Shown: piece after piece, positions 22,760-39,701 of the stretch
How positions within the stretch are numbered: position 1 is the first letter of the stretch
How the letters are laid out: each line of letters begins with the position of its first letter
Assembly (NCBI GenBank): GCA_027314165.1
Contig: DAHVCH010000001.1
Coordinates: 108,590 to 172,589, forward strand
DNA: 64,000 bases
DNA from: Thermoplasmata archaeon
GTDB taxonomy: Archaea; Thermoplasmatota; Thermoplasmata; Lutacidiplasmatales; UBA184
Direction of reading: 5' to 3'
Notes under the pieces: generated by a model
What the model saw: the letters and a program-made list of their open reading frames with translations, nothing else
Told to the model about the DNA's origin: nothing
The model's database searches: none
Made by a program: the position numbers and the translations under genes

Positions 22760-22766
22760 GAGGAAG

Positions 22767-24245
22767 ATGCCGCTGGAATGGACCGTCGTCCTCCTGCTGG
22801 TCCCCGCGGCCTGCGCCGGACTGGTCGAGGTCGTGCCGGGTCGGTCGGCGGTGAACGCGGTCGCGATCGCCGGGGCCCTGGGCTCCCTCATCGCGGTCCT
22901 GGCGATCGTCCAGCAGGTGCTCCTTCAGGGGACTGCGACGACCCCGATGGACGCGCTCTACGTCGACGCGCTCTCGGCGGTGCTCCTCCTCCTCTTGAGC
23001 GTCGTGGGGCTCGCCTCGGTCCTGTACTCGGTGGACTACCTGGGGCGCGAAGGGAGCCCGCACTCGCTGTCGCTCCCGCAGCTCCGGAGGTACCACGCGT
23101 TCGTCCTCCTCTTCCTGTTCACGATGTTCCTGGTGGGCGAGGCGAACAACCTAGGGCTCCTCTGGATCGCCCTGGAGGGAACGACCCTGGTCTCGGCGCT
23201 CCTGGTGGGCTTCTACCACACCCGGAAGTCCATCGAGGCGTCCTGGAAGTACCTCGTCCTCTGCACCGTCGGACTGGTCTTCGCGCTCTTCGGAACGCTC
23301 CTGCTCTACCTCGCCTCGGCCACCGCGAGCGGGAGCGCGGGGGCTTCGCTCGATTGGACGGCCTTGATCCAGATCGCCCCCAAGTTCGACCCAGGGCTGG
23401 TCCGGCTCGCGCTCGTCTTCCTCTTCGTGGGATACGGGACGAAAGCGGGTTTCGCACCGCTGCACACCTGGCTGCCCGATGCCCACTCCGAGGCCCCCAC
23501 ACCGGTCTCGGCGCTGCTCTCCGCCGGCCTCCTCAAGTGCGCCATCTACGCGCTGCTGCGGGTGGACGCGATCACGCTCCGGATGCCCGGGTTCACTTTC
23601 GCGACGTGGCTCTTCCTGGGCTTCGGGGTCGTCTCCGTGCTGCTCGCGGCCCTCTTCATCCTGGTGCAACGGGACCTCAAACGCCTCCTGGCCTACCACT
23701 CGGTCGAGCACATCGGGATCATCTCGATCGGCATCGGGTTCGGGGGGCCGCTCGGGCTCTTCGGAGCGATCTTCCACATGGTCAACCACGCCGCCACCAA
23801 GGCGGCCCTGTTCCTTGCGGGAGGCGACCTGGCCGTGGCCGCGCGGACGAAGGACCTCGACGAGATCTCCGGGGCGCTGACCGCGATCCCCGCCACCGGG
23901 ACGGTCCTGCTGATCGGCGGGCTTGCCCTCGCCGGGGTCCCACCCTTCTCGATCTTCGCGAGCGAGTTCCTGATCGTCTCCTCGGGCTTCCAGGCCGGCG
24001 ACTGGGTCGTGGCCGTGATCCTGCTGGTCGCCCTGGCCATCGTCTTCGGAGGGCTGCTGCTCCACCTGACGAGCGCGCTGTTCGGACCGAAGCCCCGTCA
24101 AGGGTTCCCCGGGATCCGCGCCCGGGTGGTGGGGACCGCGCTCGCCATCGGACTGCTCCTCCCGCTCGTGGTCGGGCTGGGCTTGCTGCTCCCCAACCCC
24201 CTCGCGACGCTCCTCCACGATGCGGTCAGGGTGGTGATGGGATGA
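22767..24245 (+). CDS. Ehr/Hyf-type complex antiporter-like subunit (NuoN/NuoM/HyfF family)
   Basis: 492 aa with 14 TM helices and motifs GTKAGFAPLHTWLPDAHSEAPTPVSALLSA, typical of NuoM/N-type subunits. Confidence 0.8.
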   Translation: MPLEWTVVLLLVPAACAGLVEVVPGRSAVNAVAIAGALGSLIAVLAIVQQVLLQGTATTPMDALYVDALSAVLLLLLSVVGLASVLYSVDYLGREGSPHSLSLPQLRRYHAFVLLFLFTMFLVGEANNLGLLWIALEGTTLVSALLVGFYHTRKSIEASWKYLVLCTVGLVFALFGTLLLYLASATASGSAGASLDWTALIQIAPKFDPGLVRLALVFLFVGYGTKAGFAPLHTWLPDAHSEAPTPVSALLSAGLLKCAIYALLRVDAITLRMPGFTFATWLFLGFGVVSVLLAALFILVQRDLKRLLAYHSVEHIGIISIGIGFGGPLGLFGAIFHMVNHAATKAALFLAGGDLAVAARTKDLDEISGALTAIPATGTVLLIGGLALAGVPPFSIFASEFLIVSSGFQAGDWVVAVILLVALAIVFGGLLLHLTSALFGPKPRQGFPGIRARVVGTALAIGLLLPLVVGLGLLLPNPLATLLHDAVRVVMG

Positions 24246-25915
24246 GCGCGGGCGCACCGGACCACGGGTCGGAGGCCCCCCTCCTGTCTGCGACGCGGTC
24301 CCAGGGCGAGCGCACGGCCCCTCCCCCTCGATCGCAGGTGGAGGTCCCCGGAGCCCGCGACGAGCGAAAGTGGGTCGCCGCGGCACGGGGTGGGCCGACC
24401 CTGGAGGAAGCTGAGGAGGGCCCGTGGGAGGTGGTCGTGGCGTTGGAGCGTTGGCGCCCCTCCGTCCTGTCGCTCGTCCATGCGCTGCGATTCCGCCTGG
24501 CGACGCTCTGGGGCGAGAACGCGCACGGCGGGGACGTCGAGGTCCACGGGATCTTCCTGGGAGGGGCCGAGTGCCGGGGCGTCCACCTCCGCGTCGACCT
24601 GCCGGGAGCGGCGCGAAAGCTGCCCTCGTTGCTGCCGGACCTGCCCACGGCCCTCTACTTCGAGCGGGAGCTCTCGGAGATGTTCGGGGTCACGATCCTC
24701 GCCTCCCCCGACACCCGTCCGCTCCTGCTCCACGAACGTCACACCGCCCCTCCGATGCTGCCCGCAGGCGGCGAACCCACGGGGGTCCGTGCCCCCTTCG
24801 GGTTCCCCCGTACGGAAGGGGAAGGGGTCTACGAGGTCCCGGTCGGGCCGGTGCATGCAGGAGTGATCGAGCCCGGCCACTTCCGCTTCCAGGTGCGAGG
24901 GGAGGAGATCCTCAACCTCGAGGTACGCCTGGGCTACGCCCACAAGGGGACGGAGAGGCTGTTCGAGGGACTCGAGCCATCTCAGGCCACGGTCCTCGCC
25001 GAGTCGATCTCGGGGGACATGTCGGTCGCGGGTGCCACCGCGTATGCGCTCGCGGTGGAGGACGTCCTCGGGGTTCCTGTCCCTCCCGCCGCGCAGACCG
25101 CCCGGGGCCTGCTGCTCGAGCTGGAACGGGCGGCGTTCCTGATGGGGGATGTCGCTGGGATCATCCTGGACGTGGGGTACGCGGCCGGGGCCGCCGAGGC
25201 CAACGTCCTTCGAGAACAAGCCTACGGCACGCTCGAGCTCCTCACCGGTTCCCGGCTCGGGCGAGGGGCCGTGGTTCCCGGAGGGCTCGCTCGGCCGGTC
25301 CCGGCGGAGGCGCGAGTGGACGTGGAGCGGTCGCTGGACGCCGTCCGGCGGGGCCTCGCCGGCCTCGTCGACCACGTCCACGACCAGCCCAGCATCATGG
25401 ACCGGCTCCGAGGAACGGGGGTCATCTCGCTCGAGGTCGCCGAAGCCCTAGGCATGGTCGGACCGGCCGCCCGGGCCAGCGGTCTCGTCAGGGACGTGCG
25501 GCGGGACCGCCCTTACGGTCCCTATGTCCACGAGCGCGTGCGCGTCCGTGTCGCCTCCCGTTCCGAAGGCGACGTGGAGGCACGGTTCGAGGTGAAGGTC
25601 GCAGAGGTCCTCGAGGCCTGCCGACTCGCGCGGCACTTCCTCGGCGAAGGGGGTCCCGCGACGGGACCCCTGATCTCCTCGCGATCGGCCCGGCCCCGCC
25701 ACGGTCTCGGCATCGTCGAGTCCCCCCGCGGGGAGTTCCTGGTGGCCCTCCGTCCTTCGGAACCGGCGAAGAAGGTGCTCGCGAGGGTCCACGTCCGCGA
25801 CCCCTCCTTCCTCAATTGGCCGGCGATCGAGTACGCCGTCCGCGGGAACATCGTCCCGGATTTCCCGCTCTGCAACAAGAGCCTGAACCTCTCGTACTCG
25901 GGGTTCGACCGATGA
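24242..25915 (+). CDS. fused NuoC/NuoD-like (HycE-like) large subunit lacking [NiFe]-binding cysteines
   Basis: The ATG overlaps the upstream stop (ATGA). It has an N-terminal NuoC-like segment (LVHALRFRLATLWGEN...) followed by a large-subunit domain GPVHAGVIEPGHFRF...RLGYAHKGTERL. The position of the hydrogenase L1 motif (ERxCGICGFxHSxAY) reads ESISGDMSVAGATAY, and the C-terminus ends ...DFPLCNKSLNLSYSGFDR instead of DPCxxC. Confidence 0.8.
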   Translation: MSAGAPDHGSEAPLLSATRSQGERTAPPPRSQVEVPGARDERKWVAAARGGPTLEEAEEGPWEVVVALERWRPSVLSLVHALRFRLATLWGENAHGGDVEVHGIFLGGAECRGVHLRVDLPGAARKLPSLLPDLPTALYFERELSEMFGVTILASPDTRPLLLHERHTAPPMLPAGGEPTGVRAPFGFPRTEGEGVYEVPVGPVHAGVIEPGHFRFQVRGEEILNLEVRLGYAHKGTERLFEGLEPSQATVLAESISGDMSVAGATAYALAVEDVLGVPVPPAAQTARGLLLELERAAFLMGDVAGIILDVGYAAGAAEANVLREQAYGTLELLTGSRLGRGAVVPGGLARPVPAEARVDVERSLDAVRRGLAGLVDHVHDQPSIMDRLRGTGVISLEVAEALGMVGPAARASGLVRDVRRDRPYGPYVHERVRVRVASRSEGDVEARFEVKVAEVLEACRLARHFLGEGGPATGPLISSRSARPRHGLGIVESPRGEFLVALRPSEPAKKVLARVHVRDPSFLNWPAIEYAVRGNIVPDFPLCNKSLNLSYSGFDR

Positions 25916-26877
25916 TCGGCGGCGGGTCACCCGGGTCGGCGACGAGCAGGGGCGAGCCGAGCGCGGATCGGGAGGCGGCCCCCTCCTCACCCTCTCGCGC
26001 CCGGTCCACCGCGTCCGCTCCTCCGCGCGAGACGACCTCCGGTATCTTCGGTCCCTGCACGACAAAGGCCTACCCTCAGGGACCCGCGGAGCTGGCGCGG
26101 ATGGGGGCGAGGACCCCGTGGCACGACCCGGGTGTCTGCGAGGGCACAGGAGCGTGCGCGCGCGCCTGTCCCACGGAGGCGATCACGATCGAGGGCACGG
26201 GGCGGGGGGCCCGTCTCCGCCTCGACTACGGGGCGTGCGTCTTCTGTCGCAAGTGCGTGGACGCCTGTCCCACCGGAGCCCTGCGGGCTGTCCGCTTCTT
26301 TGAGCTCGCCGTGCGGTCGAAGGACGACCTCGTCGCTCGGCACGTGGCCGGTGGGACCCTCGGTGCGAACCCGCCCCCGAGCCAGGACAAGGTTTCCCGG
26401 GAAGTGCGCGAGCGCATCTCCCGCCTCTTTTCCGGGTCGCTCGCCGTGCGGGCGGTGGACGCTGGCAGCTGCAACGGTTGCGAGGTGGAGGTCTCCGCGC
26501 TCTCGTGGCCCGCCTACGACGCCGAGCGGCTCGGGATCCATTTCGTGGCGTCGCCACGGCATGCGGATGCGCTGCTCGTCACCGGTCCCGTCAACCGGAA
26601 CATGCGCCTCGCCCTCCAGAAGACCCTCGATGCGACCCCCGACCCGAAGTTCCTGGTCATCGCGGGGGCCTGCGGGATCTCCGGCGGACCGTTCCGCCGC
26701 TCGAAGGAAGTGGAGGGGGGCGTCCCCCCGTCGGACCTGCCCTCGGTCTGGGTCCCCGGTTGCCCTCCGCGCCCGGAAGCTCTCCTCTACGCCTTCTGGC
26801 TCGCGCTCGGCCGGGTGGAGCAGCAGCTGAAGAACGGGGAGCTTCCCCCCAAGGTCGGGGGAAGTTCCTTGAGGTAA
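25912..26877 (+). CDS. fused 2x[4Fe-4S] ferredoxin (NuoI/HycF-like) + NuoB/HycG-like small subunit
   Basis: The ATG overlaps the upstream stop (ATGA). It has two ferredoxin motifs (CEGTGACARACP, CVFCRKCVDACP), then the small-subunit motifs GSCNGCEVE, GACGISGGPF and VPGCPPRPE, i.e. all four Cys for an N2-type cluster. Confidence 0.8.
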   Translation: MIGGGSPGSATSRGEPSADREAAPSSPSRARSTASAPPRETTSGIFGPCTTKAYPQGPAELARMGARTPWHDPGVCEGTGACARACPTEAITIEGTGRGARLRLDYGACVFCRKCVDACPTGALRAVRFFELAVRSKDDLVARHVAGGTLGANPPPSQDKVSREVRERISRLFSGSLAVRAVDAGSCNGCEVEVSALSWPAYDAERLGIHFVASPRHADALLVTGPVNRNMRLALQKTLDATPDPKFLVIAGACGISGGPFRRSKEVEGGVPPSDLPSVWVPGCPPRPEALLYAFWLALGRVEQQLKNGELPPKVGGSSLR

Positions 26878-26883
26878 GGGCTC

Positions 26884-28065
26884 TTGCCGCGTGGCGTGTC
26901 TCGCCGCTCGCCCCCACCCGCGCCTGCTCCTCACCCCGGCGCGTCCCCGCTGGACCCCCATTCCCTCGGGCTCGAGCCCATCCCGCGGGTGATCCAGAGA
27001 TCGGGGGCCTCCACGCTCGTCGTGAGCCTGCCGAAGGAGTGGATCGAGCTCGAGGGGCTCCGCGCGGGCCAGTTCGTCTCCTGGGTCCGAGAGGACGACG
27101 GGGACCTCCGACTCCACCTCCCGGGGAAGCAGGTCCTTCCGACCCAGCCTAGGACCTGCGTCATCCGGACTCCCGGCCTGCGGTCGGTCGACCAGGCCCG
27201 GCGCCTGCTGTTCTCCGCCTACGTTCTGGGCTACGACCGCGTGCGGCTCGAGGACCCCGAGGGTCTGGACGAGGAGGTGCGGGCCGGGGTCGAACGGGTC
27301 AGCCACGAGCTCCTCGGGTTCAGCCTGACGGAGGCCTCCCGGACCACGCTGGTGGCGACCAGCTTCCTCGATCCCGCCGCGCACCCGGTGGCCGAGGTGA
27401 TCTCCCGGATCGGGTACACCCTGGACGTCCTCCTCGAACGCCTCGAGATGTCGCTCGCCGACGGGAACCCCAACGCGCTTCAGAGGGTCCCCGAGGTCCG
27501 CGTCGAGGTCCGGCGGCTCCACGCCCTCGCGCTCCGGCAGCTCAACCTCGCCGCGGCGAACCCACGGCTCGCGCGGCAGCTCGGCGTGAGCCGGCCCAGT
27601 CACCTTCTGGGTACCCGGGTCGTCGCGAAGCTCCTCGACGACATCGCGGACGCGGTGGAAGCCGTGGCGGGAGAGCTCTCCCGAATCGGCCGGGCTCCGC
27701 TCTCCGCGCGTCCGGTGCTGGAACAGATCCGAGGTCGGGTCCAGTCGCTCCGGGAGCGGCTGCGGCTCGCCCTGGGCGCCTTACGCTCCGGGAGCGCCAT
27801 AGAAGCGGAGCATGTCCTGGCCGCGCGCAGGGAAGCTCTCGAACGGTTTCTCGGGACCGAGGCCAAGCTCCGACGGATGACCGGTCCCTCGAGCCTGCGG
27901 CACTCGCTGGCCCTCGCCTCCTGGTGGGTGGGGGTCGCCCGTCAGCACGCCGAGGCGGTCGCCGAGGTCGCCTTCACGCGCGCCCTGGACCGCAACCCTT
28001 CCGTCCTGGACCTTTCCTCTTCCGGAGAGAAGAGGTTCAGCGTAAGTTCCGACCCGTCCGGATAG
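26884..28065 (+). CDS. PhoU-domain regulator with N-terminal SpoVT/AbrB-like swapped-hairpin domain
   Basis: The N-terminus IQRSGASTLVVSLPKEWIELEGLRAGQFVSWVRED is AbrB/MazE-like. The remainder is helical with two PhoU-like repeats. The gene starts 7 nt after the Ehr-cluster stop. Confidence 0.5.
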   Translation: MPRGVSRRSPPPAPAPHPGASPLDPHSLGLEPIPRVIQRSGASTLVVSLPKEWIELEGLRAGQFVSWVREDDGDLRLHLPGKQVLPTQPRTCVIRTPGLRSVDQARRLLFSAYVLGYDRVRLEDPEGLDEEVRAGVERVSHELLGFSLTEASRTTLVATSFLDPAAHPVAEVISRIGYTLDVLLERLEMSLADGNPNALQRVPEVRVEVRRLHALALRQLNLAAANPRLARQLGVSRPSHLLGTRVVAKLLDDIADAVEAVAGELSRIGRAPLSARPVLEQIRGRVQSLRERLRLALGALRSGSAIEAEHVLAARREALERFLGTEAKLRRMTGPSSLRHSLALASWWVGVARQHAEAVAEVAFTRALDRNPSVLDLSSSGEKRFSVSSDPSG

Positions 28066-28194: not shown

Positions 28195-28476
28195 ATGGCG
28201 AAAAGGTACCGATGCCGGTTGATGGGATGGAAGTGCGGCTATGTCATGACGGCGCCTACGGTCACCGAGCTGATCCCCCGCGTCGAGGAACACCTCCGGA
28301 GCGCCCACAACCTCGCGGTCGTGCCCCAGGACATCCGTTTGAAGGTCGATTCCGCGGTGCAAGAGTATACGGACCGAAGGGCGACGGGAAGGCCCTCCTC
28401 GGCGGCTCCTGCTCTCTGCGCGGCCCCGTCCCCTGCCGGGCCCGCCACCCCCGCCCCCTCGTCTCCGCCGACCTGA
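28195..28476 (+). CDS. DUF1059-like small metal-binding protein (paralog 1)
   Basis: Small ORF with MAKRYRCRLMGWKCGYVMTAPTVTELIPRVEEHLRSAHNL, showing the Cys pair plus a conserved EHxxxxH arrangement of the DUF1059 family. It is tandem to a paralog. Confidence 0.5.
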   Translation: MAKRYRCRLMGWKCGYVMTAPTVTELIPRVEEHLRSAHNLAVVPQDIRLKVDSAVQEYTDRRATGRPSSAAPALCAAPSPAGPATPAPSSPPT

Positions 28477-28503: not shown

Positions 28504-28737
28504 ATGGTCTTCATCTTCCGATGTCCAGGAGTGGACGCCCAATGCCCCTTCACGGCTTCAGGGCTCACGATCAGCGCGATGTGGCCCGAGGTCTTGGAGC
28601 ACTTGCGTACGGCTCACGGGGTCGCCCGGCCGTATCCGTCGCTGCTGAGCCGTGTCGACGGGGGATTCTGGCTTGAGGCCGACAACACGATCGCCACCTC
28701 TCGCGCCCGGGCCGTCGGCTCGGTCCCACCCATCTGA
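28504..28737 (+). CDS. DUF1059-like small metal-binding protein (paralog 2)
   Basis: MVFIFRCPGVDAQCPFTASGLTISAMWPEVLEHLRTAHGV has the same Cys-x6-7-Cys...EHLRxAH architecture as the upstream gene. Confidence 0.5.
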   Translation: MVFIFRCPGVDAQCPFTASGLTISAMWPEVLEHLRTAHGVARPYPSLLSRVDGGFWLEADNTIATSRARAVGSVPPI

Positions 28738-28933: not shown

Positions 28934-30595
28934 GTGCGCGCCGAATCGGGGACGTTCCATTGTCCAGCGCAGCACCCGGGGGGAGCTAGCCCGATGGCCG
29001 CCCCGTACCAACCCCCGCCGCCCCCTCCCTCCGATCGACCCCTCTCCGATCAGGGAAGCGCGGGTCCGCAGTCCATGCAGGGCTCCTGGGGTACGACCTC
29101 GGGGCCTACGCAGCGCCCCCGCCACGTCCTGGTGCTCGACATCTCGAAGAGCATGCTCGCTCCCCTTCCGGACCCCAGCGACCCCAGCCGGGTCCGGAGG
29201 AAGATCGAGGTCGCCCGGGCCGCGACCTACCGCATCTTCGAGACGGTCCAGTCCCAGGGAGCGATGTTCGGGCTGGTCATCTTCAACAACGTGGCCCACG
29301 TCGCGATCCCCCTCACCGAGATCCGTCCGGAGATCCGCCCCGCGCTCGACAATCTGGTGGCTCTCCTGCCCCCGAAGGGACGGTCCGCGATCTGGGACGC
29401 GCTCGCCCTGGGCGCGGACCTGCTGCGCGTAGAGGGCGGAGCGACCCACGGGAACCTCGTCCTGGTGACCGACGGGTGGGACAACATGTCGCAACGGTTC
29501 GGGGCCCCCGGCATCGACCTGCCCCCGCCCCCACCCCCGGGGTCCCCTCCGGGAACTTCCCCCCCTCCTCGCGCCGACATCCTCGCCTACCTTCTCACCC
29601 AGGGCAGCAGGCTCGGGCTCCGCATCATCGGGATCGGGAGCGGCGTCGAACGGGACAAGGGGGTCGACTCCCAGAGGATGCGCGCCTTCACGGACGCCTA
29701 CGCCGCCCGGACCCAGGCGTGGAGACTGGGCTGCACCGTCTCCTACGAGGAGGTCACGACGAGCGAGGAGCTCTTCTCCCGCATGGTCCAGGCGTTCGTC
29801 GACATCCCATTCGAGGACGCCATGGCGGTGGAGAACCTCCACCCCGACGAACTGGCAGAGGCGGCAGCCTCGGCCGCCCGGGCGCTGCGCGACTCCGACG
29901 GGAAACGCAGCGTGGTGGGCCACCTGGCTTCCGGCAAAGGTACCGGCGCCGCCGGGAGCCCCGCCCCCGGGACCCCCTCCCAGCCGGGGATGGAGGTCGA
30001 CATCCTGAGCCCGCAGGCCGGTCACTCCGCGGTGAACCTGAGGGACCGTTACGGGCCCCTGGGAGAGGTCGCGGAGGCGTACATGGCCCGCGATTGGGCC
30101 AGGGCCCAGGCCATCCTGTACCAGAAGGGAGGCCTCATCGCCCCCGTCACCCGGTTCTACTGGCAGGCGCGCGTCTACTTCGCGCAAGGAGAGAAGGGGG
30201 AGGCGGGCCGCTACCTAGCGCAAGCCTGGTCGGAGGCCGAGGCGCTACCCGTCGCGGACCGGGGCCGGGTCGTCCGCCGGCTCGCGCTGCTCCAGGCCAA
30301 GGTCACCGGCGACAGGGAGACGGAGAGCCTGGTCAGCTTCTACGACGCGGCCGAGACGAAGGCCCGGTCGCTGGGCAGCGGGCTCGGCGACAAGCTCGAA
30401 CGGATGTTCGACCGCATCCTGGCGCTGAGGGGCACCTACGCGACGGTGAAGGGAGGGGGCGCGGCCGCCCACGAGGAGCTCGTGGAGGAGATCTTCGGAC
30501 TGCTCCAGGACGCCCGCCTCGCCAACACCCAACGCGAGCCCGCCATCGACGCGTTCCTGGACTTCGTGGAGATCGCCCTCGCAGAGATGCGGTAG
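28934..30595 (+). CDS. von Willebrand factor A (vWA) domain protein with Pro-rich linker and C-terminal alpha-helical (TPR-like) domain
   Basis: Has the vWA MIDAS start HVLVLDISKSMLAP (DxSxS) with a downstream T (LVTDGWDN), a PPPPPPGSPPGTSPPPR linker and a ~250-aa helical C-terminal domain. A TATA-like TTCAAATAAT lies at 28886-28898. The start is GTG at 28934 or ATG at 28994. Confidence 0.7.
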   Translation: MRAESGTFHCPAQHPGGASPMAAPYQPPPPPPSDRPLSDQGSAGPQSMQGSWGTTSGPTQRPRHVLVLDISKSMLAPLPDPSDPSRVRRKIEVARAATYRIFETVQSQGAMFGLVIFNNVAHVAIPLTEIRPEIRPALDNLVALLPPKGRSAIWDALALGADLLRVEGGATHGNLVLVTDGWDNMSQRFGAPGIDLPPPPPPGSPPGTSPPPRADILAYLLTQGSRLGLRIIGIGSGVERDKGVDSQRMRAFTDAYAARTQAWRLGCTVSYEEVTTSEELFSRMVQAFVDIPFEDAMAVENLHPDELAEAAASAARALRDSDGKRSVVGHLASGKGTGAAGSPAPGTPSQPGMEVDILSPQAGHSAVNLRDRYGPLGEVAEAYMARDWARAQAILYQKGGLIAPVTRFYWQARVYFAQGEKGEAGRYLAQAWSEAEALPVADRGRVVRRLALLQAKVTGDRETESLVSFYDAAETKARSLGSGLGDKLERMFDRILALRGTYATVKGGGAAAHEELVEEIFGLLQDARLANTQREPAIDAFLDFVEIALAEMR

Positions 30596-30653
30596 GGTCT
30601 CGGGGGCCAAAGCATATCATGAACGTTCACGTGAGAAGAAGGAGCCCTCCAAG

Positions 30654-32033
30654 ATGAGCCCCCCCAACCCCACGAAAGGTGCGAACAAGAAGCGACCCGC
30701 CGACGCGGCCGCGGCTCCGCCGGCGCCTGCTCCCGCGCCGCCTCCCCCTGCGCGCGCGCCCGCCCCCGAGCCTGCACCGGCCCCGACCGCGCCCGGCGAA
30801 GCTCCGGTCGAGCCGGAACCCGCCATCCCGGCGCCCGTGGTCCGCAAGGTCGTCCCAGGGTCCGTTCCACCCCCGGAGAGGAGGGCCCCGCCGCCACCCC
30901 CCATCCGCCCACGAAAGGCCCCGGAGCCGGAACCGCCGGAACCTCCGCCGATCGGGGCCAAGATCGCCGTGGTCGGGATCCCCGCTTCGGGGAAGACCAC
31001 CTACTTCCGCTACCTCTCCGGTCACTTCGGGCTGAACCTGCCTCTGGTCTACGTCCCCAGCCGCTCCGGCTCGGTCATCCCCCTCTTCGGGGACATCGGG
31101 AACGAGGTGGTGATGGAGGAGACCACCTACGAGTCCGACCCCAACAATCCCGCCGCGGCGATGGACACCACGACGCGCCTCTACGTCAATCGGCCGATGG
31201 AGGACCCCACGCGGCTCTTCGTGGAGCTCGCGCAGGGACAGGAGGAGCAGGGGATCCTGACCAAGTATCCCCTTCCGACGAAGTACAACCAGTTCGTCGA
31301 GATGAAGCTCAACTTCCGGTACGGGGTCGCGGGGAACCTCGCCCAGGCGAAGCCGATGGTCCTTAGGACCGTCGACGAGGCCGGGGGGATCATCTCGGAC
31401 TACTTCACCTACGACCGCCTGTGGATCAACGCTCCTACCGAGGAGGTCCCGGTCGAGAAGTGCCGGGTCATCCCGCGCTTCGACACCTGGAAGCCCGACC
31501 GCCAGGAGCTCTGGCGACGCGGGCTCACCCTGATGGGAAGGTTCACCGTCGACGCCGACGGCATCATCCTTCTCCTCACCCCGCAGCTGGGCTCGCTCAG
31601 GGACAGCGCCCAGCAGGTGAACCTCGCGCGGGGGGTCTTCCGGTACGCGCGGCAGCGGGGCATCCCCGTGGTGATCGCGATATCGAAGGCCGACCTGCTG
31701 AAGGAGTTCTACCTCGAGGTGGAACAGGTCCTGACCAATCGCGGGTACCTCTCAGGGTTCGACAGCAACCGGTTCCTCACCGAGCGCGACGGAAGCGGGC
31801 TCGGGAGCATTCTCGCGGCCCAGGAGGGCCGCGGGTTCTCCACGAAGGAGGACGCCTACCTGGTCGCCTCGGCGATCTCCACGGGAGAGGGACGACCTCT
31901 CCTCTACGGGGACACGGCGGACGTCGACCTCAACAACGGTGCGACCGCGGGAGTGCCCGTGATGGTCAACACGACGCTCCCCCTCGCCCGGATCTGCGAG
32001 CGCGTGCTGACCGAGCGCGGCGACCTGAGCTAG
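30654..32033 (+). CDS. TRAFAC-class small-GTPase-like protein with Pro/Ala-rich N-terminal IDR and large inserted domain
   Basis: Has G1 AKIAVVGIPASGKTTY, G3 RFTVDADGII (DxxG) and G4 VVIAISKADL (NKxD-like SKAD). There is a ~110-aa PAPAPAPPPP-type N-terminal region and a ~190-aa insertion between G1 and G3. A TATA-like GCATATCA lies ~38 nt upstream of the ATG. Confidence 0.7.
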   Translation: MSPPNPTKGANKKRPADAAAAPPAPAPAPPPPARAPAPEPAPAPTAPGEAPVEPEPAIPAPVVRKVVPGSVPPPERRAPPPPPIRPRKAPEPEPPEPPPIGAKIAVVGIPASGKTTYFRYLSGHFGLNLPLVYVPSRSGSVIPLFGDIGNEVVMEETTYESDPNNPAAAMDTTTRLYVNRPMEDPTRLFVELAQGQEEQGILTKYPLPTKYNQFVEMKLNFRYGVAGNLAQAKPMVLRTVDEAGGIISDYFTYDRLWINAPTEEVPVEKCRVIPRFDTWKPDRQELWRRGLTLMGRFTVDADGIILLLTPQLGSLRDSAQQVNLARGVFRYARQRGIPVVIAISKADLLKEFYLEVEQVLTNRGYLSGFDSNRFLTERDGSGLGSILAAQEGRGFSTKEDAYLVASAISTGEGRPLLYGDTADVDLNNGATAGVPVMVNTTLPLARICERVLTERGDLS

Positions 32034-32042
32034 GGGCGGGGC

Positions 32043-34640
32043 ATGGACGCGCCCAGGCCCGTGCCCGCTCCAGGGACCCCCGCGGCTCCCTCGAGACCGG
32101 CCGGGGCGGGTCCGTCCGGCGGAAAGGACCGGGGACTGGTCTCCGTCGTCTGGTGCCGCCAAGTGGACAACGAGGCCGAGAGCCCGGGATACACGACGGT
32201 CCCGACGGAGTTCCCGGGCCGGAAGGAGACGCTGGACACCGTCCGGGTCGTCGGGAACCTCGCGATCAACGCGGCCGACACCCACGACTACTGGGACCCG
32301 GACCCCACGAGCAAGCTCGCCTACTACCACAACCTGTTCCTCTATCCCGCGAACGGAGGGCAGTACCTCTGCCTGGGCCGGATGTTCCTCTCCACCGAGG
32401 ACCGACCTCGGCTCGGGATGAAGACGCTCATCCTGGACGCCTCCGCGCTGCTCGAGTCGGAGAACCTCGGGCTCGTCCTGCGGCGATGGTACAGCTCCAT
32501 GGGCAATCCCGGTCGCGGCGCGCAGACGGAGGGGCGGGCCGACCCCGCGATGATGGACGCCCTCTCCGACGCGTTCGTGTTCCTACGGCTGGACCCCGGC
32601 CGGCCGTTGGTGGGTCTGGTCTCGGACAACTTCCACGACGCGGTCGAGGGAGTGCTCACGCTGCTCGAGCGCATGCCCTCCTCCGTTGCCCTTCTCGGAG
32701 GGTGTCTCATCTTCCCGTACTTCCTCCCCGTGGGACGGGTCCAAGTGGCGGAGTTCGCCGAGACCTTCCCGCTGACCCTGGCCCTCGCCCGGATCCCCCG
32801 CAACGAGGCGGGGGGAGACCGCCACGTGAAGCGCGTCTCGGCTTGGGCCTCCCAGGGCGTCCACCTCCTCGACCTGACCCAGGGGCTCCCATCTGAGGTC
32901 CGTTCCCGCCCCGCGGCCGGCCCTCCGATCTCCTGGTGGTGCAAGGGCGACCGGCCGGAACTGATCAACGACCTGCGGAGAGCGGTGGACCGCGTCGAGC
33001 TCCCCCGCCTCCGAGAGTCGGAGCAGAAGGGGAGCCTCCGGAGCGGGTCGGAGCGGCGCCGGGAACTTGCCCGGCTCGCCTCCGCCATGAGCTCGATCTC
33101 GCTCGCGCTGCAGAGGCCTCCCTCGGAGCGGTCGACCCTGGGCGTGGAGGTCCTCCGCACCGTGCAGCCCTACCTCCAAGCGCTCTCCGCAACGGCCGGG
33201 TCTCCCGCAGAAGGGGTACGCACTCCGGGAACCCTTCCCGAAGCCCCATCCACCGGGCCTGCCGCGCCTTCCGTGGTCCCGGTGGGCGGCATCGTCGTGA
33301 CCCCGCCCTTGGGGATGCCCCCGAAGAGTTCGAGCTCGCAGGAGGAGCCCCCCTGGCGCAGGGCTCCTCGGCTCCGTCCGGAGCGGTCGGAGGTGGTGCC
33401 CGTCCCTCGGGGGGCCCCCGGGGGCGAGGGGCCCCCCGGGGACGAACGGGTGGGCGCCGGGTCGGCGGCCGCTCCTCCCGTGCCACCGGGCGTCGACCGA
33501 AACCCTCCGTACGGCGACCTCGCCGGGGCGTCGCCGCCCCCCGCCGCGGTACCCGGCCTGCCGCCCGCGCTCCTCGAGGAGCTCCGGTCGTACATCGACT
33601 CCCGGATCGGAGAGTCCCGCGTGCGCGTCGGCGACCTCGACCCCGACGTGGTCGGCGGGCTCGAGCGTGATCTGGAACGGCGACTGGAAGCGCGCGCGCG
33701 GCTCCTCGTTTCCCCAGAGGCGCTGGAGGCGCGGGTCGTGGAGATCCTGGCCCGAAGGCCCCCCCCACCCGCACCGGACCCCCAGGACCTCCTGAACGAC
33801 GCGACCAGGGGCGCCCTGGCCGAGGTCGTGGACGCCCTCGTTGCCGAACGAATGGCGGACGCGACCGCAGGCGGCAACGCGGGAGCCTCCTCGTCGGCCG
33901 AGGACGACCTCTCGAGGTTGGACGACCGCGTGGTGGCGCTCCTTTCGAAGGACCCGGACGACCGGCGCGTCGCGGCCTTGCTCGACCAGCGCATCCAGGA
34001 CTACGTCGCCTCCTCCGCGCAGGCGGACCGAAAGGCGACGGACGACCGTCTCGACCTCATCCTGAAGGAGCTCCAGTTGCGGGCGAAGTCCCAGACGGAG
34101 CTCGAGGCGACCATCCGGTCCGAGGTCCGGTTCCTGGACGAGAAGCTCCAGACGCTGATGGGTCGGATGATCCCGCTGCTGAAGCGGACCTGGCTCAAGA
34201 TCGACGAGCTCGAGAAGCGCCCCGCCGGCGCGGGGGGCGCCTCCGATCAGAAGATGAAGCGCCTGCGCGACGAGCTCTGGAGGGAGATGAAGCGCATGGA
34301 GATCGACCTCTCGGAGCGCACGCGCCTCATCCTCGACCGGGTCGAAGGGAACATCCAGAACCAGGGGAAGCTCTGGCTGACGCTGGTGGGCCAGCTGTCC
34401 TCGCTCGCCGAGCAGCGGCGCGAACTGGAGAAGATCGTGCACGAGTCGAAAGAGGACTTCGAGGTTCCCGCGGAGGACGGCCCCCTGCAGGTCCCAGAGG
34501 AGACCTCGGAGGAAGACCGGGCGGACGAGGCCCCGAAGCCGACGACCACCGCGGCGCAAACAGGGAAGGCGACCGCGCAGAGGAACAGGGGGACCGAGAA
34601 GGACCCTGCTCCTTCGAACCGGACCGCGCGGGCCAAGTAA
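32043..34640 (+). CDS. large coiled-coil protein: N-terminal ~290-aa globular domain, Pro-rich linker, ~400-aa coiled coil
   Basis: The ATG lies 9 nt after the GTPase stop (operonic). The N-terminal domain (VVWCRQVDNEAESPGYTTVP...LILDASALLESENLGLVLRRWY) has no family I can name. The centre is Pro-rich (PPLGMPPKSS...PPVPPGVDRNPPY). The C-terminus has heptad-rich E/R/L/K repeats (DRLDLILKELQLRAKSQTELEATIRSEVRFLDEKLQTLMGRM...). Confidence 0.55.
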   Translation: MDAPRPVPAPGTPAAPSRPAGAGPSGGKDRGLVSVVWCRQVDNEAESPGYTTVPTEFPGRKETLDTVRVVGNLAINAADTHDYWDPDPTSKLAYYHNLFLYPANGGQYLCLGRMFLSTEDRPRLGMKTLILDASALLESENLGLVLRRWYSSMGNPGRGAQTEGRADPAMMDALSDAFVFLRLDPGRPLVGLVSDNFHDAVEGVLTLLERMPSSVALLGGCLIFPYFLPVGRVQVAEFAETFPLTLALARIPRNEAGGDRHVKRVSAWASQGVHLLDLTQGLPSEVRSRPAAGPPISWWCKGDRPELINDLRRAVDRVELPRLRESEQKGSLRSGSERRRELARLASAMSSISLALQRPPSERSTLGVEVLRTVQPYLQALSATAGSPAEGVRTPGTLPEAPSTGPAAPSVVPVGGIVVTPPLGMPPKSSSSQEEPPWRRAPRLRPERSEVVPVPRGAPGGEGPPGDERVGAGSAAAPPVPPGVDRNPPYGDLAGASPPPAAVPGLPPALLEELRSYIDSRIGESRVRVGDLDPDVVGGLERDLERRLEARARLLVSPEALEARVVEILARRPPPPAPDPQDLLNDATRGALAEVVDALVAERMADATAGGNAGASSSAEDDLSRLDDRVVALLSKDPDDRRVAALLDQRIQDYVASSAQADRKATDDRLDLILKELQLRAKSQTELEATIRSEVRFLDEKLQTLMGRMIPLLKRTWLKIDELEKRPAGAGGASDQKMKRLRDELWREMKRMEIDLSERTRLILDRVEGNIQNQGKLWLTLVGQLSSLAEQRRELEKIVHESKEDFEVPAEDGPLQVPEETSEEDRADEAPKPTTTAAQTGKATAQRNRGTEKDPAPSNRTARAK

Positions 34641-35665: not shown

Positions 35666-36580
35666 GCCCCCGAAGGAAACCCCCGCGGGCGCGCCTCCTC
35701 GACGAGCGGGTGCGGCGATACTACCTCGGATACGACGAGGAGGGACGTCTCGCGAAGGACCCGTTCCATCGCCTGGAGTTCGACACGACGCTGCGGTACC
35801 TGGAGCGCGTCCTCCCCCCCCCGCGGCCACATCTTGGACGCAGGGAGCGGACCGGGGCGATACGCGGTGGCACTCGCCCGACGGGGGCACACCGTGTCCC
35901 TGATCGACCTCATGCCGGAACACGTGGAGGCCGCGCGGCGTGCAGCCGCACGAGCTGGGGTCGCGCCCGATCTCCTCGACTTGCGGTCGGGTTCGTTGGA
36001 CGACCTGTCTTTCTTCCCCGATTCGGGGTTCGCAGGGGTTCTGTGCCTCGGGTCGGCGCTCGGCCACCTTGTGGACCCGGTCCGTCGGGCCCGCGCCTTG
36101 CGTGAGCTCTTTCGCGTCGCACGCCCGGGAGCCCCGGTCTTCGTCTCGGTCATCGGCCGGCTCTGTCTGCTCGGCTCCAGCATGCTCGCCAACCCCGGAG
36201 AGTGGCAGGTGGACCCGGCGATGTACCGCCGCATCGAGCGAACAGGGGACTACGACGGCCATCGGGGGTTCGCGCCCTGCCACTTCTTCCTGGTCGAAGA
36301 GCTTCAGGAAGAGATGCGAAAGGCCGGCCTCACGATCGAGACCACCGTCGGGCTCCAGGGGCTCGTCCCACCCTACCCCAAGCAGATCTCCTCTGCCGCC
36401 CGAAGATACCCCAAGGCGTTCCGGGCCTGGTTGGAACTCCTCTACAGGTCCTGCGAAGACCCCGCGGTCGTGCCCTTCAGCCAGCACTTTCTCGTGATAG
36501 GGCGGAGGCCCGGGAGTCTCCCGGTCGGTCCGGAGGGACGTGGGGGACGGTCCCGCCGCGATTCGCGGACCTCCGGATGA
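35662..36580 (+). CDS. class I SAM-dependent methyltransferase (Methyltransf_11/12-like), reading frame interrupted at a poly-C tract
   Basis: The N-terminus MSPRRKPPRARLLDERVRRYYLGYDEEGRL...RYLERVLPPP (frame 1) continues as RGHILDAGSGPGRYAVALARRGHTVSLIDLMPEHV (motif I, frame 2) after a 9-C run at 35814-35822. One missing or extra C restores a single ORF. Confidence 0.6.
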
Positions 36581-36707
36581 TGGATGGGCGGTCCGGAGCA
36601 GGACCGGGAACCCCTCGCCGGCTTTCGACCGAGAAGCAAGGAGAGAGCGTGAGCGGCGACAATTCACGCGTACATTCCTTAATATCAATGGGACCGGTCG
36701 TGAACTC

Positions 36708-39701
36708 GTGCCCTGGCGAGGAGAGACTTCCCCGCAACCCCGGCGCCGCCTTCCACTCCGCGTCCGGTCGATCCTCGCTTGCGCGGTCCTGATCCTCCTG
36801 CTGACCGTGCTTCAGGGGCAGTTGGGTGGGTGGGCCTCGGCGCGAGCTCCGGCCCTGTCCATGCCTCATGCGGGGCCCTCCGGTTCGGCCGGTGTCCCCT
36901 CCGCCTCTCATGCCGCCACCGTGGTGAGCCGACCTGCGACGGCCACGGGTTCTCCGACCAGCGGTGGGTTCATGGGGGCTCTCACCGGCTTCCTTTCCGC
37001 GATCTCGCACCGCCCCTCGGCGGGTCCTCCCCTTCCGAACATCACCGGGGGGAACATCACCGGGTTCTCGCTGGCGATGGTCGGGGTGGGGCTCACCGGC
37101 AATTCGGGATTGCAGTTCTCCTCGGCCATCGGGGAGATGCCCAGCGGTGCGAACTCCTCGACCTACCTCTTCTCGCTCCTCGGGGAGACGGTGAGCACCA
37201 ACTCCACGGCCTTCGTAGGGTACATCGAAGGGTCGCTCGGCGGGATCACGGGCGCGCTTCCGCTCTATCTCGTGCTCAACGGGACCACCCTCGGCGCCTG
37301 CGGGTTCGGAAGCTTCACCAGCGTCATGCTCCCGGGGCCGACCGTCCATCAGTTCTCGATGGTGCAGGACCACGGGTACTGGTGGAACTTCCTCTTGGAC
37401 GGCTCGATCATCTCCGGCGGCTCCGGCCTGGGGGGCACCGGGAGCTTCTGTGCCGGGTCCGGCAACGGCACGGTCGACCTGTATGCGTCGGCCACTGCGC
37501 TCCTGTTCATACCGCTGTACGCCTGGATCCTCTCCGCGAACGTTTCGGGGTTCGTCGGCTCCACCGTTCAGACCGTCTCGGAGTACCGGACCGGGACCAC
37601 GTGGACCCAGTCCATCTCGGGCATTGTGGTCACCGACACCTCCGTCGGGCTCGCGGGGTACGACCAGGACAGCACGATACCCCCGGACCAGGTCCAGGTG
37701 GGGCCCCCGCGCACGGTGCTGAACAGCACCACTGCCGTCTGGAGCACCGGACCGCTGCCTTCCTTGACGCTCGACGAGCAGGGCGTACCCTCGACCATGT
37801 ATGCTGGGCAGACGGTCGACCTCACGGCGTGGGTCAATGACAGCTCGACCAAGGTCGGAGTGGGTACGGCGACCCTCTCCCCGACGTCCAGCTCGGGCGG
37901 CAGCTTCCTGATGACCGGGTCCGGTCCGTCCGCGGGAGAGTTCCACCTTTCGTATGCGGCACCGCTCCCCGCGAAGCAGGACAATCTGACCCTTCTCGCC
38001 ACGGGTCCCGGGTACGTCGGGGTCCGGCACACCTACGTCCTCACGATCGCCCCCGTCCACCTGGTCTTCTCGGCCCATCCCCCGTCCGGGCCGCTCTTCT
38101 CCGGCGCCACCCGGAGCGTCCCCTTCACGATCAACGCCAGCTACGGCGTGCCGTTCTCCCCTGCCCAGGTGTCGGTCTCCGTCCGGGGCGGAGGCACCGC
38201 GACGGTGCTGTCCATTCCGGCGTCCTCGGTCGGGTCCTATGTCGTCGAGCTGACCGCGCCGATGTTCAACGAGCCCTCGATCTCCGCCGTGACCATCACG
38301 GGGTCGGGTCCTGGCGTGGTCACCCAGTCGACCACCTTCAGCGTGCGGATCGAGCCGCGACCCCTGGCGGTCCTCGGACCGACCGGAGGGTTGGTGTGGG
38401 CTGGGGCCCGACTGTCCTTCAACCTCTCCCTATCGACCCCGTCGGGCGCGCTTCCGAGCGTGACGTCCACCTGGTGGAACGCGACGGTCAGGAACGCGAG
38501 CGGGACCGACCTCCTGACAGTGGGTGGCGGGGCCTCGATCACCCCGCACGACGGATGGGCTTCCCTCCAGGTGGCACTTCCCGCACACTACGTGGGCCCG
38601 CTGTGGTTCTGGGTCAACGTCTCCGCTCCCGGGTTCAACCAGACCGTCTCCAGCTGGTGGGAGAACGCGACGGGCAACCTCTCGTTGGAGCTCCAGGGCC
38701 TTCCCGCCGTCATGTCCGGCGGCGACCATGCGACGCTGACCTTGCGAGTCCTGGGCCTCGGAGGCGTCCCGATCTATGGGGCACCGGTGGTGTGGTCCGC
38801 GAACTTCGGTGGGTTCGGTTCTGCCGACCTCCCGACCGTCACGGGATACACCGATGTGAACGGAGCGACGTCGGTCAGTTTTGTCGCCCCTAGCGTGGCC
38901 AACACGACCGACATCGATGTCTCCGCGGCCGTCCTATACCCCTACTACACGGCGGGTCACGCGGTGAGCTCGGGCACGGCCGCGCCCTCGGCAGGGGGCC
39001 AGCTCGGGAGCGGGATCGACAACGGGATGGCCATCATCGACCTCCTGCTGGCGCTTGTCGTGCTGGCGCTCATCCTGGCCATCTTCGCGGAGTCGCGAAG
39101 CCGCCACGAGCGCGAAGCCCGAAGTGCGGCAGCGACCGGGGCTGTCGCCATGCGGCCATGGGCCTCGTCCGATCCCAGCGAGGAGCTCGGGTCGGAAGGG
39201 AAGGCTCCGTGGCCCGGCGGGACCAGCGCGAAGTACGTGGAGGAGGAGCTTGGAGCGTCCGACCACCCTCCCGAGCCCGCCGCTCCCAAGGCCGACCCAT
39301 CCCCGAAGGGAGCGAACGGTTCTCCCGGACAGGAGCCTAAGGCGAGCACGAGCGCCCGATCGCCCGCCGAGACCTCGGAGGAGCTCGGGTCGGAGGGGAA
39401 CTTCCACGGGACCTCTGGAGACCCCGCGGGCGGGGACTCGGGGGACGCAGCTCCGGGAGGGTCCCCCGCGGTGGGCGGACCCTCGACCCAGTCCAGTTCC
39501 CCGTCCCCCACCCCCGAGGCTCCTTCGGCTCCATCGGCTTCTTCGGCGCAGTCCGCCGGCGGGGAGGAGAAGGTTCCGGTTTCCGAGGAACCCACGAGCG
39601 CGGAGTCCACGACCTCCGGGAAAGCGATGGCCGGGTCCTCCTCCTCGAAGCCGGTAAAGGCGAAGAGGACGCCCAAGACCCGCTCCGGCCCTTCGGATTA
39701 G
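36708..39701 (+). CDS. archaeal cell-surface glycoprotein (S-layer-like): signal peptide, Ser/Thr/Gly-rich ectodomain with many N-x-S/T sequons, C-terminal TM anchor and acidic tail
   Basis: An N-terminal RRR + hydrophobic stretch (SILACAVLILLLTVL) follows a GTG at 36708, and a TATA-like TTAATATCA at 36679-36687 is ~27 nt upstream (leaderless). There are more than 20 sequons (NITGGNITG, NSST, NGTT, NVSG, NLTL, NASY...). The C-terminal TM is IIDLLLALVVLALILAIF, followed by a charged S/E/P-rich tail. Confidence 0.65.
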   Translation: MPWRGETSPQPRRRLPLRVRSILACAVLILLLTVLQGQLGGWASARAPALSMPHAGPSGSAGVPSASHAATVVSRPATATGSPTSGGFMGALTGFLSAISHRPSAGPPLPNITGGNITGFSLAMVGVGLTGNSGLQFSSAIGEMPSGANSSTYLFSLLGETVSTNSTAFVGYIEGSLGGITGALPLYLVLNGTTLGACGFGSFTSVMLPGPTVHQFSMVQDHGYWWNFLLDGSIISGGSGLGGTGSFCAGSGNGTVDLYASATALLFIPLYAWILSANVSGFVGSTVQTVSEYRTGTTWTQSISGIVVTDTSVGLAGYDQDSTIPPDQVQVGPPRTVLNSTTAVWSTGPLPSLTLDEQGVPSTMYAGQTVDLTAWVNDSSTKVGVGTATLSPTSSSGGSFLMTGSGPSAGEFHLSYAAPLPAKQDNLTLLATGPGYVGVRHTYVLTIAPVHLVFSAHPPSGPLFSGATRSVPFTINASYGVPFSPAQVSVSVRGGGTATVLSIPASSVGSYVVELTAPMFNEPSISAVTITGSGPGVVTQSTTFSVRIEPRPLAVLGPTGGLVWAGARLSFNLSLSTPSGALPSVTSTWWNATVRNASGTDLLTVGGGASITPHDGWASLQVALPAHYVGPLWFWVNVSAPGFNQTVSSWWENATGNLSLELQGLPAVMSGGDHATLTLRVLGLGGVPIYGAPVVWSANFGGFGSADLPTVTGYTDVNGATSVSFVAPSVANTTDIDVSAAVLYPYYTAGHAVSSGTAAPSAGGQLGSGIDNGMAIIDLLLALVVLALILAIFAESRSRHEREARSAAATGAVAMRPWASSDPSEELGSEGKAPWPGGTSAKYVEEELGASDHPPEPAAPKADPSPKGANGSPGQEPKASTSARSPAETSEELGSEGNFHGTSGDPAGGDSGDAAPGGSPAVGGPSTQSSSPSPTPEAPSAPSASSAQSAGGEEKVPVSEEPTSAESTTSGKAMAGSSSSKPVKAKRTPKTRSGPSD

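Follow-up and report, generated by a model that had tools for sequence, protein, structure and literature searches.

The window analysed here, a stretch of 64,000 nucleotides from a Thermoplasmata archaeon (GCA_027314165.1, contig DAHVCH010000001.1, positions 108,590 to 172,589 of the forward strand), carries three consecutive genes on the + strand that encode a von Willebrand factor A (vWA) protein, a small Ras-like GTPase and a large protein referred to as ORF3. On balance we read this module as a GTPase switch whose own longin-type regulator is encoded with it, along with a vWA adaptor; the regulator, probably a GTPase-activating protein (GAP), is carried on a coiled-coil stalk. The reading is drawn from the precedents of MglA/MglB and of an operon in Asgard archaea, from the translational coupling of the GTPase and ORF3 genes, from the matching distribution of their families and from the invariant residues on two elements of the predicted longin domain of ORF3. 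At the core of both membrane traffic in eukaryotes and cell polarity in bacteria stand pairs of a small GTPase and a longin or roadblock regulator.

The open reading frame (ORF) scan placed the vWA gene at 28934-30595, the GTPase gene at 30654-32033 and ORF3 at 32043-34640. An independent gene call and the homologs agree with this arrangement of three consecutive genes on one strand, which had been proposed in a sequence-only reading of the same DNA. The vWA gene encodes 553 aa when read from the GTG at 28934; an ATG at 28994 is in frame, and the independent gene call starts around 20 codons in. The GTPase (459 aa) and ORF3 (865 aa) genes are separated by 9 nt (TAG GGGCGGGGC ATG), as already noticed in the sequence-only reading, and share 1 nt in the loci L002 and L085. 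The spacer between the vWA and GTPase genes measures 58 nt in the window copy and 23 nt in L002. Two AT-rich patches, putatively TATA-like, are present at ~28884 (TTCAAATAATGG, for the vWA gene) and at ~30609 (AAGCATATCATGAA, for the GTPase gene); since the spacer is only 23 nt long in L002, an internal promoter before the GTPase cannot be a conserved feature. The G+C content of the window, 67-73%, gives rise to long chance ORFs in every frame. Spurious ORFs of up to 1045 aa (e.g. 22778-25915 and 24424-26877) overlap real genes in other frames or on the opposite strand, and hence ORF length alone is no evidence for a gene in this window. The vWA, GTPase and ORF3 genes are real, each having more than 300 protein homologs or conserved orthologs. 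An identical GTPase sequence is encoded on contig DAHVCG010000007.1 of the Thermoplasmata metagenome-assembled genome (MAG) GCA_027314175.1. Rfam and tRNA scans of the window retrieved no RNA genes.

Homologs of the GTPase (349) and of ORF3 (321) originate from Thermoplasmata, Lutacidiplasmatales or unnamed metagenomes. When one genome per GTDB species was scanned, with an alignment of the GTPase as query, ~150 species-level genomes, nearly all labelled Thermoplasmata, were found to encode it; the best 80 loci of the 150 genomes were kept. Gene order was compared in a set of 82 loci by tblastn with the three window proteins (N- and C-terminal domains of the vWA protein, the GTPase, and the N-terminal module and C-terminal block of ORF3). 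The sequence-only reading had staked the idea of a module on co-localisation in other genomes, and the three genes are indeed adjacent on one strand, with their order unchanged, in 82 of 82 loci as far as the contigs reach. A vWA ortholog lies directly upstream of the GTPase wherever the contig extends far enough, ORF3 follows immediately downstream in every locus whose contig runs past the GTPase, and all three genes are complete on one piece in 72 of the 82 loci. GTPase identities range between 60 and 87% among the homologs listed and between 64 and 100% by tblastn across the loci.

The GTPase (30654..32033, +) belongs to the TRAFAC class, and its predicted fold is that of a small Ras-like G domain with intact guanine-nucleotide motifs. 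The motifs G1, G3 and G4, described as intact in the sequence-only reading, and also G5 are invariant or nearly so in 27 homologs. G1, the P-loop GIPASGKT (aa 108-115; 30975..30998), varies at one position only (A or S). The invariant G3/Walker B motif D241-E-A-G-G245 (31374..31388) contains an invariant Glu242 directly after the Walker B Asp and has no catalytic Gln after DxxG, the invariant Gly245 being located at that position. G4 is a variant of NKxD, S344-K-A-D347 (31683..31694), with invariant S, K and D, and carries Ser for the Asn/Thr of [NT]KxD; most homologs show a weak alignment with the EF-Tu model here. G5 (S406-A407, SAxS; 31869..31880) is invariant and follows directly after the last core strand. 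The 190-aa insertion claimed for this protein shrank to two parts, one of ~90 aa (aa 122-212; 31017..31289) that separates alpha1 from switch I and the beta2-beta3 hairpin, and one of ~40 additional residues between G3 and G4. The former insertion is conserved and beta-rich in the predicted structure (strands 144-146, 152-160 and 171-178, followed by a low-confidence stretch at 181-211), and ends in the invariant PLPTKYNQF, of which Thr209 is the likely candidate for the G2 threonine. The protein begins with a Pro/Ala-rich tail of low pLDDT (aa 1-102; 30654..30959), predicted to be disordered. In the 27 homologs this tail comprises 25-122 aa (median 39) and is always basic, with a net charge of +2 to +10.

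All matches of the GTPase to Pfam and NCBIfam GTPase models were below the cutoff and confined to the P-loop or NKxD region. Profile searches yielded no named GTPase family among Arf/Sar, Rab, Rag, MglA, Era/Obg/EngB/HflX and GPN. A HMMER profile searched against 1.84 billion representative proteins retrieved one full-length cluster of 50% identity and fragments, and nothing more at E<=1e-3. Membership in a known family was thus rejected on the sub-threshold P-loop and NKxD matches that Pfam, NCBIfam and PDB sequence searches gave, and so was the possibility, raised beforehand as a way in which the module could dissolve, of a housekeeping GTPase of the EngB or HflX kind. DO-GTPase2 (PF19993) was rejected as well: 10 of the 27 homologs match this model over 14 P-loop residues only (profile positions 3-16, E 0.04-0.28). 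Judged from its sequence, the GTPase family is isolated, with no relatives outside itself.

In ORF3 (32043..34640, +), a longin/DENN-like N-terminal module is followed by a disordered linker, by a helical stalk that varies between homologs and by a C-terminal block that is conserved. With an alignment of 33 sequences, AlphaFold folded the first 386 aa at a pLDDT of 85 and a pTM of 0.85. The first domain of this model (aa 29-185; 32127..32597) has the strand and helix order beta-beta-alpha-beta-beta-beta-alpha-alpha of a longin domain, with beta1 at 32-39, beta2 at 49-53, alpha1 at 60-76, beta3 at 92-103, beta4 at 108-117 and beta5 at 123-132; the later helices at 133-137, 142-152 and 168-179 were taken as alpha2 and alpha3. 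It is followed by a predicted alpha/beta domain resembling cDENN (aa 186-303; 32598..32951), in which 4-5 strands alternate with helices and a Walker A motif is absent, and by a predicted four-helix region resembling dDENN (aa 304-385; 32952..33197). The helices of the latter (305-328, 335-356, 360-365 and 368-382) were modelled with pLDDT values mostly above 85, and no specific structural match to dDENN was obtained for them.

The top structural matches of the N-terminal module were a Lokiarchaeota longin, C9orf72, DENND1A, folliculin and Npr2. Scores were 7.2 for DENND1A (182 residues aligned), 7.1 for both RagC and Npr2, and 7.0 for both folliculin and DENND10 (183 residues aligned in the latter); the match to RagC presumably concerns its C-terminal roadblock domain. 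Lower in the ranking Tca17, Mon1, Ccz1, NPRL2/3, LAMTOR, roadblock proteins, MglC and Lst4 were mixed with alpha/beta domains of AAA+, ORC and Apaf proteins. Such a mixture is consistent with published descriptions of cDENN, a three-layer alpha/beta domain with a sheet of about 5 strands that resembles a minimal P-loop NTPase domain lacking the residues for nucleotide binding, and of dDENN, all-alpha with two alpha-hairpins. The best Foldseek match in the PDB was C9orf72 (354 columns, E=0.013, probability 0.35), and none was found at E<=1e-3. Pfam searches with 15 N-module sequences at E<=10 gave no match to DENN, uDENN, dDENN, folliculin, SMCR8 or Avl9, and neither did Pfam and PDB-sequence profile searches with the longin domain and the N-module give any match at E<=10. 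A test for longin, roadblock or DENN folds had been recommended in the sequence-only reading. Its outcome was positive for longin, which is predicted with confidence, and suggestive for DENN, an assignment of modest score.

The longin domain contains 55 of the 75 invariant columns. The two longest invariant runs are WCRQVDNEAESPGY, covering beta1, the loop and the start of beta2, and GRMFLSTEDRPRLGMKT, covering beta4, the loop and beta5. Within the first, the invariant S47-P48-G49-Y50 (32181..32192) is located at the start of beta2, the site of the 'GP motif' which is specific to the GAP-type longins FLCN, SMCR8, C9orf72 and NPRL2 and adjoins their arginine finger (PMC12290439). Within the second, the invariant STEDRPRLGMKT (32391..32426) spans the beta4-beta5 loop, modelled as residues 118-122. 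It holds two candidates for an arginine finger: the invariant R121 inside the loop and the invariant R123 at the start of beta5. A conserved Arg between beta4 and beta5 of the longin domain has been used in recent work to define the 'DENN GAPs', and in longin GAPs the beta1-beta2 and beta4-beta5 elements, on which the invariant residues of ORF3 reside, form the catalytic pocket. In the model, ORF3 thus has its arginines where longin-type GAPs have theirs; the correspondence is one of position alone, and catalysis is putative.

Human NPRL2 was compared directly, with a query sequence identical to 6ces_N. Its R78 was taken as occupying the stretch equivalent to the R121/R123 loop, the strands having been assigned by eye. 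The ORF3 segment TVPTEFPGRKETLDTVR resembles QVPEDFISRELFDTVQ of NPRL2 by eye, and hhalign against the single NPRL2 sequence returned a non-significant alignment of 15-16 columns at E ~0.2. Against a profile of 11 NPRL2 sequences the alignment comprised 15 columns at a probability of 0.3% (E=0.22), and homology of the ORF3 longin domain to NPRL2 was rejected.

From the precedents, the coupling of the two genes, the matching distribution and the invariant longin elements we infer that the longin face of ORF3 binds the neighbouring GTPase; docked on the switch regions, it would control the nucleotide state. As a GAP, ORF3 would insert Arg121 (or Arg123) as arginine finger in the manner of folliculin, SMCR8, NPRL2 and the Avl9-type DENN GAPs. 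A GAP is favoured over an exchange factor for guanine nucleotides (GEF) because the Gln of G3 is missing and the arginines are invariant. With the same architecture, ORF3 could instead be a DENN-type GEF, or it could serve the GTPase as a longin platform or effector that has no catalytic activity. Such a role is a serious possibility, yet a clearly less probable one, given that two invariant arginines lie in or at the beta4-beta5 loop, the position that defines DENN GAPs and longin GAPs, and that the GTPase is without the catalytic Gln, as is typical of GTPases for which catalytic residues have to come in trans.

The remaining parts of ORF3 are less uniform. The linker (aa 386-505; 33198..33557) is rich in Pro and Gly (32-46% in windows of 28 aa), disordered and unconserved in sequence. 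The charged helical stalk (aa 506-667; 33558..34043) varies in sequence and length. Among 115 homologs the middle region comprises 118-715 aa (median 495), with the window copy at the short end, and the total length ranges between 650 and 1270 aa; one further ortholog has 559 aa only. Hence the stalk varies in length while the two ends of the protein are constrained. The C-terminal block (145 aa, aa 668-812; 34044..34478) is conserved in the alignment and comprises two long helices linked by a Gly/Ala loop, with P711, W717, Q774-G775 and W778-L779 invariant; searches of Pfam and PDB with this block returned generic coiled-coil noise only. Stalk and block together form a helical region of ~300 aa (506-812) with a modest heptad signal, less than the ~400 aa of coiled coil first ascribed to this protein. 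The idea of ORF3 as a scaffold or effector falls short in that the protein is not merely a scaffold and carries a predicted GTPase regulator. Through its linker, stalk and C-terminal block, this regulator probably forms dimers or is tethered to some structure of the cell. The protein ends in a disordered tail, first acidic and then basic (34479..34637). Many orthologs (among P0131-P0144) terminate with an acidic patch, e.g. DDDPLGPV, and an Arg cluster of the form RRRxxRRR or RRRPxRRR; the tail of the window copy is only loosely basic. This acidic/Arg tail could be a short linear motif, for instance a ligand of the metal ion-dependent adhesion site (MIDAS) of the vWA protein.

The vWA protein (28934..30595, +), predicted as cytoplasmic, matches the VWA_2 family (PF13519) at 34.4 bits with a cutoff of 27 (E=3.8e-8), and the same family appears in the gene-call tables of the orthologous loci. 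Its MIDAS residues (D69-I-S71-K-S73, G-R-S151-A-I-W-D-A-L and L-V-T-D180-G; 29138..29485) are intact: D69xS71xS73, S151 and D180 are conserved in an alignment of 72 orthologs. The C-terminal ~200 aa (aa ~340-553; 29951..30592) are conserved, helical in character and TPR-like, sub-threshold TPR matches to Pfam being found in some members only. The conserved block reads RYGPLG...FYWxAR...RRLALLQ...LQDxRL...AEMR. Against PDB sequences the profile of this domain gave a single, non-significant match to a putative lipoprotein (E=0.031). The description of gene 1 as a vWA/MIDAS protein with a helical C-terminal domain therefore stands. A Pro-rich insert, PPPPPPGSPPGTSPPP (aa 197-212; 29522..29569), is lineage-specific, its columns being mostly gapped or unconserved in the same alignment. 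Pro-rich segments had been noted in each of the three proteins, and they are real in this copy; as a shared feature they did not hold, for they are mostly lineage-specific low complexity. The vWA-TPR-like protein may serve as effector or adaptor, with its MIDAS clamping an acidic peptide, possibly in a disordered tail, and the basic tails hint at binding to a membrane or to nucleic acids.

Neighbourhoods were compared by tblastn with marker proteins and by gene-call tables; an all-versus-all clustering of stop-to-stop ORFs was in part disturbed by antisense and low-complexity ORFs, the GC content being 70%. The trio is intact across at least 4 different upstream and 3 different downstream neighbourhoods. 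In the commonest, ribosomal proteins, eIF6 and S17e are encoded upstream, and the downstream side holds genes for a cytidylyltransferase-like protein, DUF5611 and an M50 peptidase. In the lineage of the window, a Mbh/Mrp-like complex, an AbrB-type regulator and DUF1059 genes precede the trio, and GNAT and methyltransferase genes follow it. Genes for a KaiC-like ATPase and for the Asn-synthase family are located upstream in L083 and L084, and a NOG1-family GTPase in L085. The neighbours are housekeeping genes that differ between lineages, and variable effector genes were absent from the neighbourhoods examined. No copy of the module was found in the viral contigs searched, and none of the three proteins matched a defence model of PADLOC-DB at E<=0.1. 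The trio is a vertically inherited, strongly constrained operon particular to one Thermoplasmata clade that includes Ca. Lutacidiplasmatales. In one MAG, YP2.bin30 (JAKATE01), GTPase and ORF3 genes occur twice on different contigs (L005 and L008), with 99% and 70% identity to the window protein, respectively; this reflects either contamination or strain mixing in the bin or a rare duplication of the module. A contig labelled 'bacterium isolate clean3188' (L079, DAIDCO010000028.1) carries the vWA gene, the GTPase gene and the start of ORF3 in the usual order up to its end. The label is probably wrong, the contig being Thermoplasmata by content.

The frequent neighbourhood with ribosomal genes, along with the Nog1 match, would suggest a ribosome-biogenesis or translation factor and a module acting on ribosomal subunits. 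This is improbable, as the adjacent S17e gene lies on the opposite strand and, in the window lineage as well as in L083-L085, no ribosomal genes are linked to the trio. Moreover, the longin-type partner points to a small-GTPase switch, and in L085 a NOG1-family GTPase is present as a distinct gene close by.

The gene content is also reminiscent of an anti-phage or conflict system related to DO-GTPase+GAP1 or to vWA ternary systems, in which ORF3 would be the sensor or a GAP1-like third component. In DO-GTPase+GAP1 systems a TRAFAC GTPase with a Walker B Glu is followed by a partner of three domains, in some cases along with vWA and coiled-coil proteins (Kaur, Burroughs, Iyer and Aravind 2020), and this grammar resembles that of the trio. 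The weak DO-GTPase2 matches in 10 of the 27 homologs point in the same direction, but span the P-loop only, and ORF3 matches neither GAP1-N/M/C nor any other Pfam family. A PADLOC match, viral copies, effector domains, variable neighbours and a MoxR ATPase are all lacking, and inheritance across the clade is uniform and strongly conserved beside housekeeping genes. A conflict system, which the sequence-only reading had entertained as an alternative, is accordingly disfavoured, and we consider it slightly more improbable still than a ribosomal role. That the three genes are neighbours by shared ancestry only, with no joint function, is hardly credible: the genomes behind most of the 82 loci are related and share much of their synteny, yet both flanks were rearranged several times with the trio intact, the spacers are tight with overlapping stop and start codons, and the families are equal in size and taxonomic range.

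For the GTPase switch with its longin-type regulator, a housekeeping role in cell biology is preferred over immunity because inheritance is uniform and constrained, the neighbours are housekeeping genes, and effector domains as well as defence and viral signals are missing. The output may be spatial or morphological, with polarity, division and the remodelling of membranes as examples. A bolder proposition would regard ORF3 as a genuine longin-DENN-type GAP or GEF for the GTPase, outside the Asgard archaea, and the module, with its vWA-TPR protein and coiled-coil stalk, as an unrecognised GTPase-driven machine that organises polarity or membranes in these wall-less archaea; this we hold only tentatively.

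Several points weigh against a GTPase switch with its own longin-type GAP. The invariant Glu242 might act as an intrinsic catalytic residue, in which case no GAP would be needed. The motif at beta2 of ORF3 has the order P48-G49 and not the G-P of GAP longins, and for ORF3 no link to a longin, DENN, folliculin or NPR2 family emerged from any sequence or profile method. The synteny of 82 loci overstates the number of independent observations, because most loci share ancestry and a broadly conserved neighbourhood; the real support consists of a handful of rearranged contexts. The cellular function of the module is purely inferred, and we know of no cultured member of the clade.

Several further genes were noted around the module in the window. 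Upstream, at ~20650-26880 on the + strand, a multi-subunit Mrp/Mbh-like membrane complex is encoded with two Proton_antipo_M subunits, a NADHdh (NuoH-like) subunit, a fused Complex1_30kDa+49kDa subunit and a Fer4+Oxidored_q6 subunit; by its appearance it is a membrane-bound hydrogenase of group 4 or a respiratory complex related to one. A 393-aa protein with an AbrB/MazE domain (26884-28065) precedes two small tandem genes. The first of these encodes a DUF1059 protein (28195-28476, +; E=2e-12), and the second (28504-28737, +) a 77-aa protein containing MVFIFRCPGVDAQCPF...H..H without a Pfam match, which we take to be a product resembling a diverged DUF1059 paralog. Downstream, a gene on the + strand (36540-39701) encodes a protein of ~900-1050 aa (906 aa with the later start chosen by the gene caller) that weakly matches the Ig-like Big_1 domain, has a hydrophobic segment around residue 800 and ends in a tail rich in Ser, Pro and Glu. 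A surface or S-layer-type protein is the probable identity.

To our knowledge, eukaryotes and Asgard archaea are so far the only organisms in which the tripartite DENN-style regulator has been identified by sequence. The origin of DENN, folliculin and GATOR1 is discussed almost entirely by means of Asgard archaea, and the Thermoplasmata operon would be a data point outside this group. If ORF3 is such a regulator, the DENN-style architecture either goes back further in archaeal evolution or had an independent origin in Thermoplasmata. The module further offers a compact three-protein system for the biochemistry of longin-type GAPs, and gives a testable role to three conserved 'hypothetical' genes of a widespread clade of archaea from soil and acid environments.

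Among known systems, MglA/MglB of bacteria and archaea are similar to the module in that a small Ras-like GTPase is encoded adjacent to its GAP, in this case the roadblock protein MglB. The GTPase of the module differs in having no sequence relationship to MglA and a G3 motif, DEAGG, without Gln. Its partner is much larger (650-1270 aa), is built on a longin instead of a roadblock domain and carries two further domains and a stalk, and a vWA protein is the obligate third member.

The predicted layout of ORF3, a longin domain followed by an alpha/beta and a helical domain, is that of folliculin-FNIP, C9orf72-SMCR8, GATOR1 (NPRL2) and Avl9/DENND6/DENND11. ORF3 shares with these eukaryotic GAPs a conserved Arg in the beta4-beta5 loop, and has a conserved Pro-Gly pair at the start of beta2, the site of the GP motif. 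In contrast to them, it has no detectable sequence homology, the order of the pair is P-G and not G-P, and a long stalk and C-terminal block are fused to the module; the partner GTPase is not an Arf, Rab or Rag protein, and the host is an archaeon outside the Asgard group.

In Asgard archaea, an operon that combines a roadblock protein of the LAMTOR1 kind with a Rab-like GTPase and a DENN-domain protein has been proposed to encode a GTPase regulator (Liu et al., bioRxiv 10.1101/2020.10.19.343400). It resembles the module in joining a DENN-type protein and a small GTPase in an archaeal operon. By sequence, the Asgard proteins can be recognised as DENN and Rab-like, whereas those of the module cannot; the third gene here encodes a vWA instead of a roadblock protein, and the lineage is Thermoplasmata.

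The likeness to DO-GTPase+GAP1 systems lies in the Walker B Glu of the TRAFAC GTPase and the multi-domain partner encoded downstream. In contrast, the P-loop is the only part of the GTPase that matches DO-GTPase2, ORF3 matches none of the Pfam families GAP1-N, GAP1-M and GAP1-C, zinc ribbons, FNIII, GASH and variable effectors are missing, and inheritance is housekeeping-like. By these sequence comparisons, DO-GTPase/GAP1 appears as a formal analogue of the module and not as a relative.

Lastly, SR-beta, the Arf-like GTPase of the receptor of the signal recognition particle (SRP), is bound by the longin-fold SRX domain of SR-alpha, next to which a disordered linker is located. The module likewise combines a small GTPase with a larger protein in which an N-terminal longin fold is followed by a disordered linker, but ORF3 has no SRP-type NG domain. 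The JGI labels 'SRP receptor subunit beta' in one homolog and 'SAR1 family' in others reflect weak similarity, as no Arf or SRPRB model matched at E<=1.

The papers searched on Thermoplasmata and Lutacidiplasmatales gave no description of the three-gene module. Pairs of a GTPase and a longin or roadblock protein are the known part of the system, and new are two main proteins without detectable sequence relatives, a predicted DENN-like regulator on a stalk, an obligatory vWA partner and a host outside the Asgard archaea.

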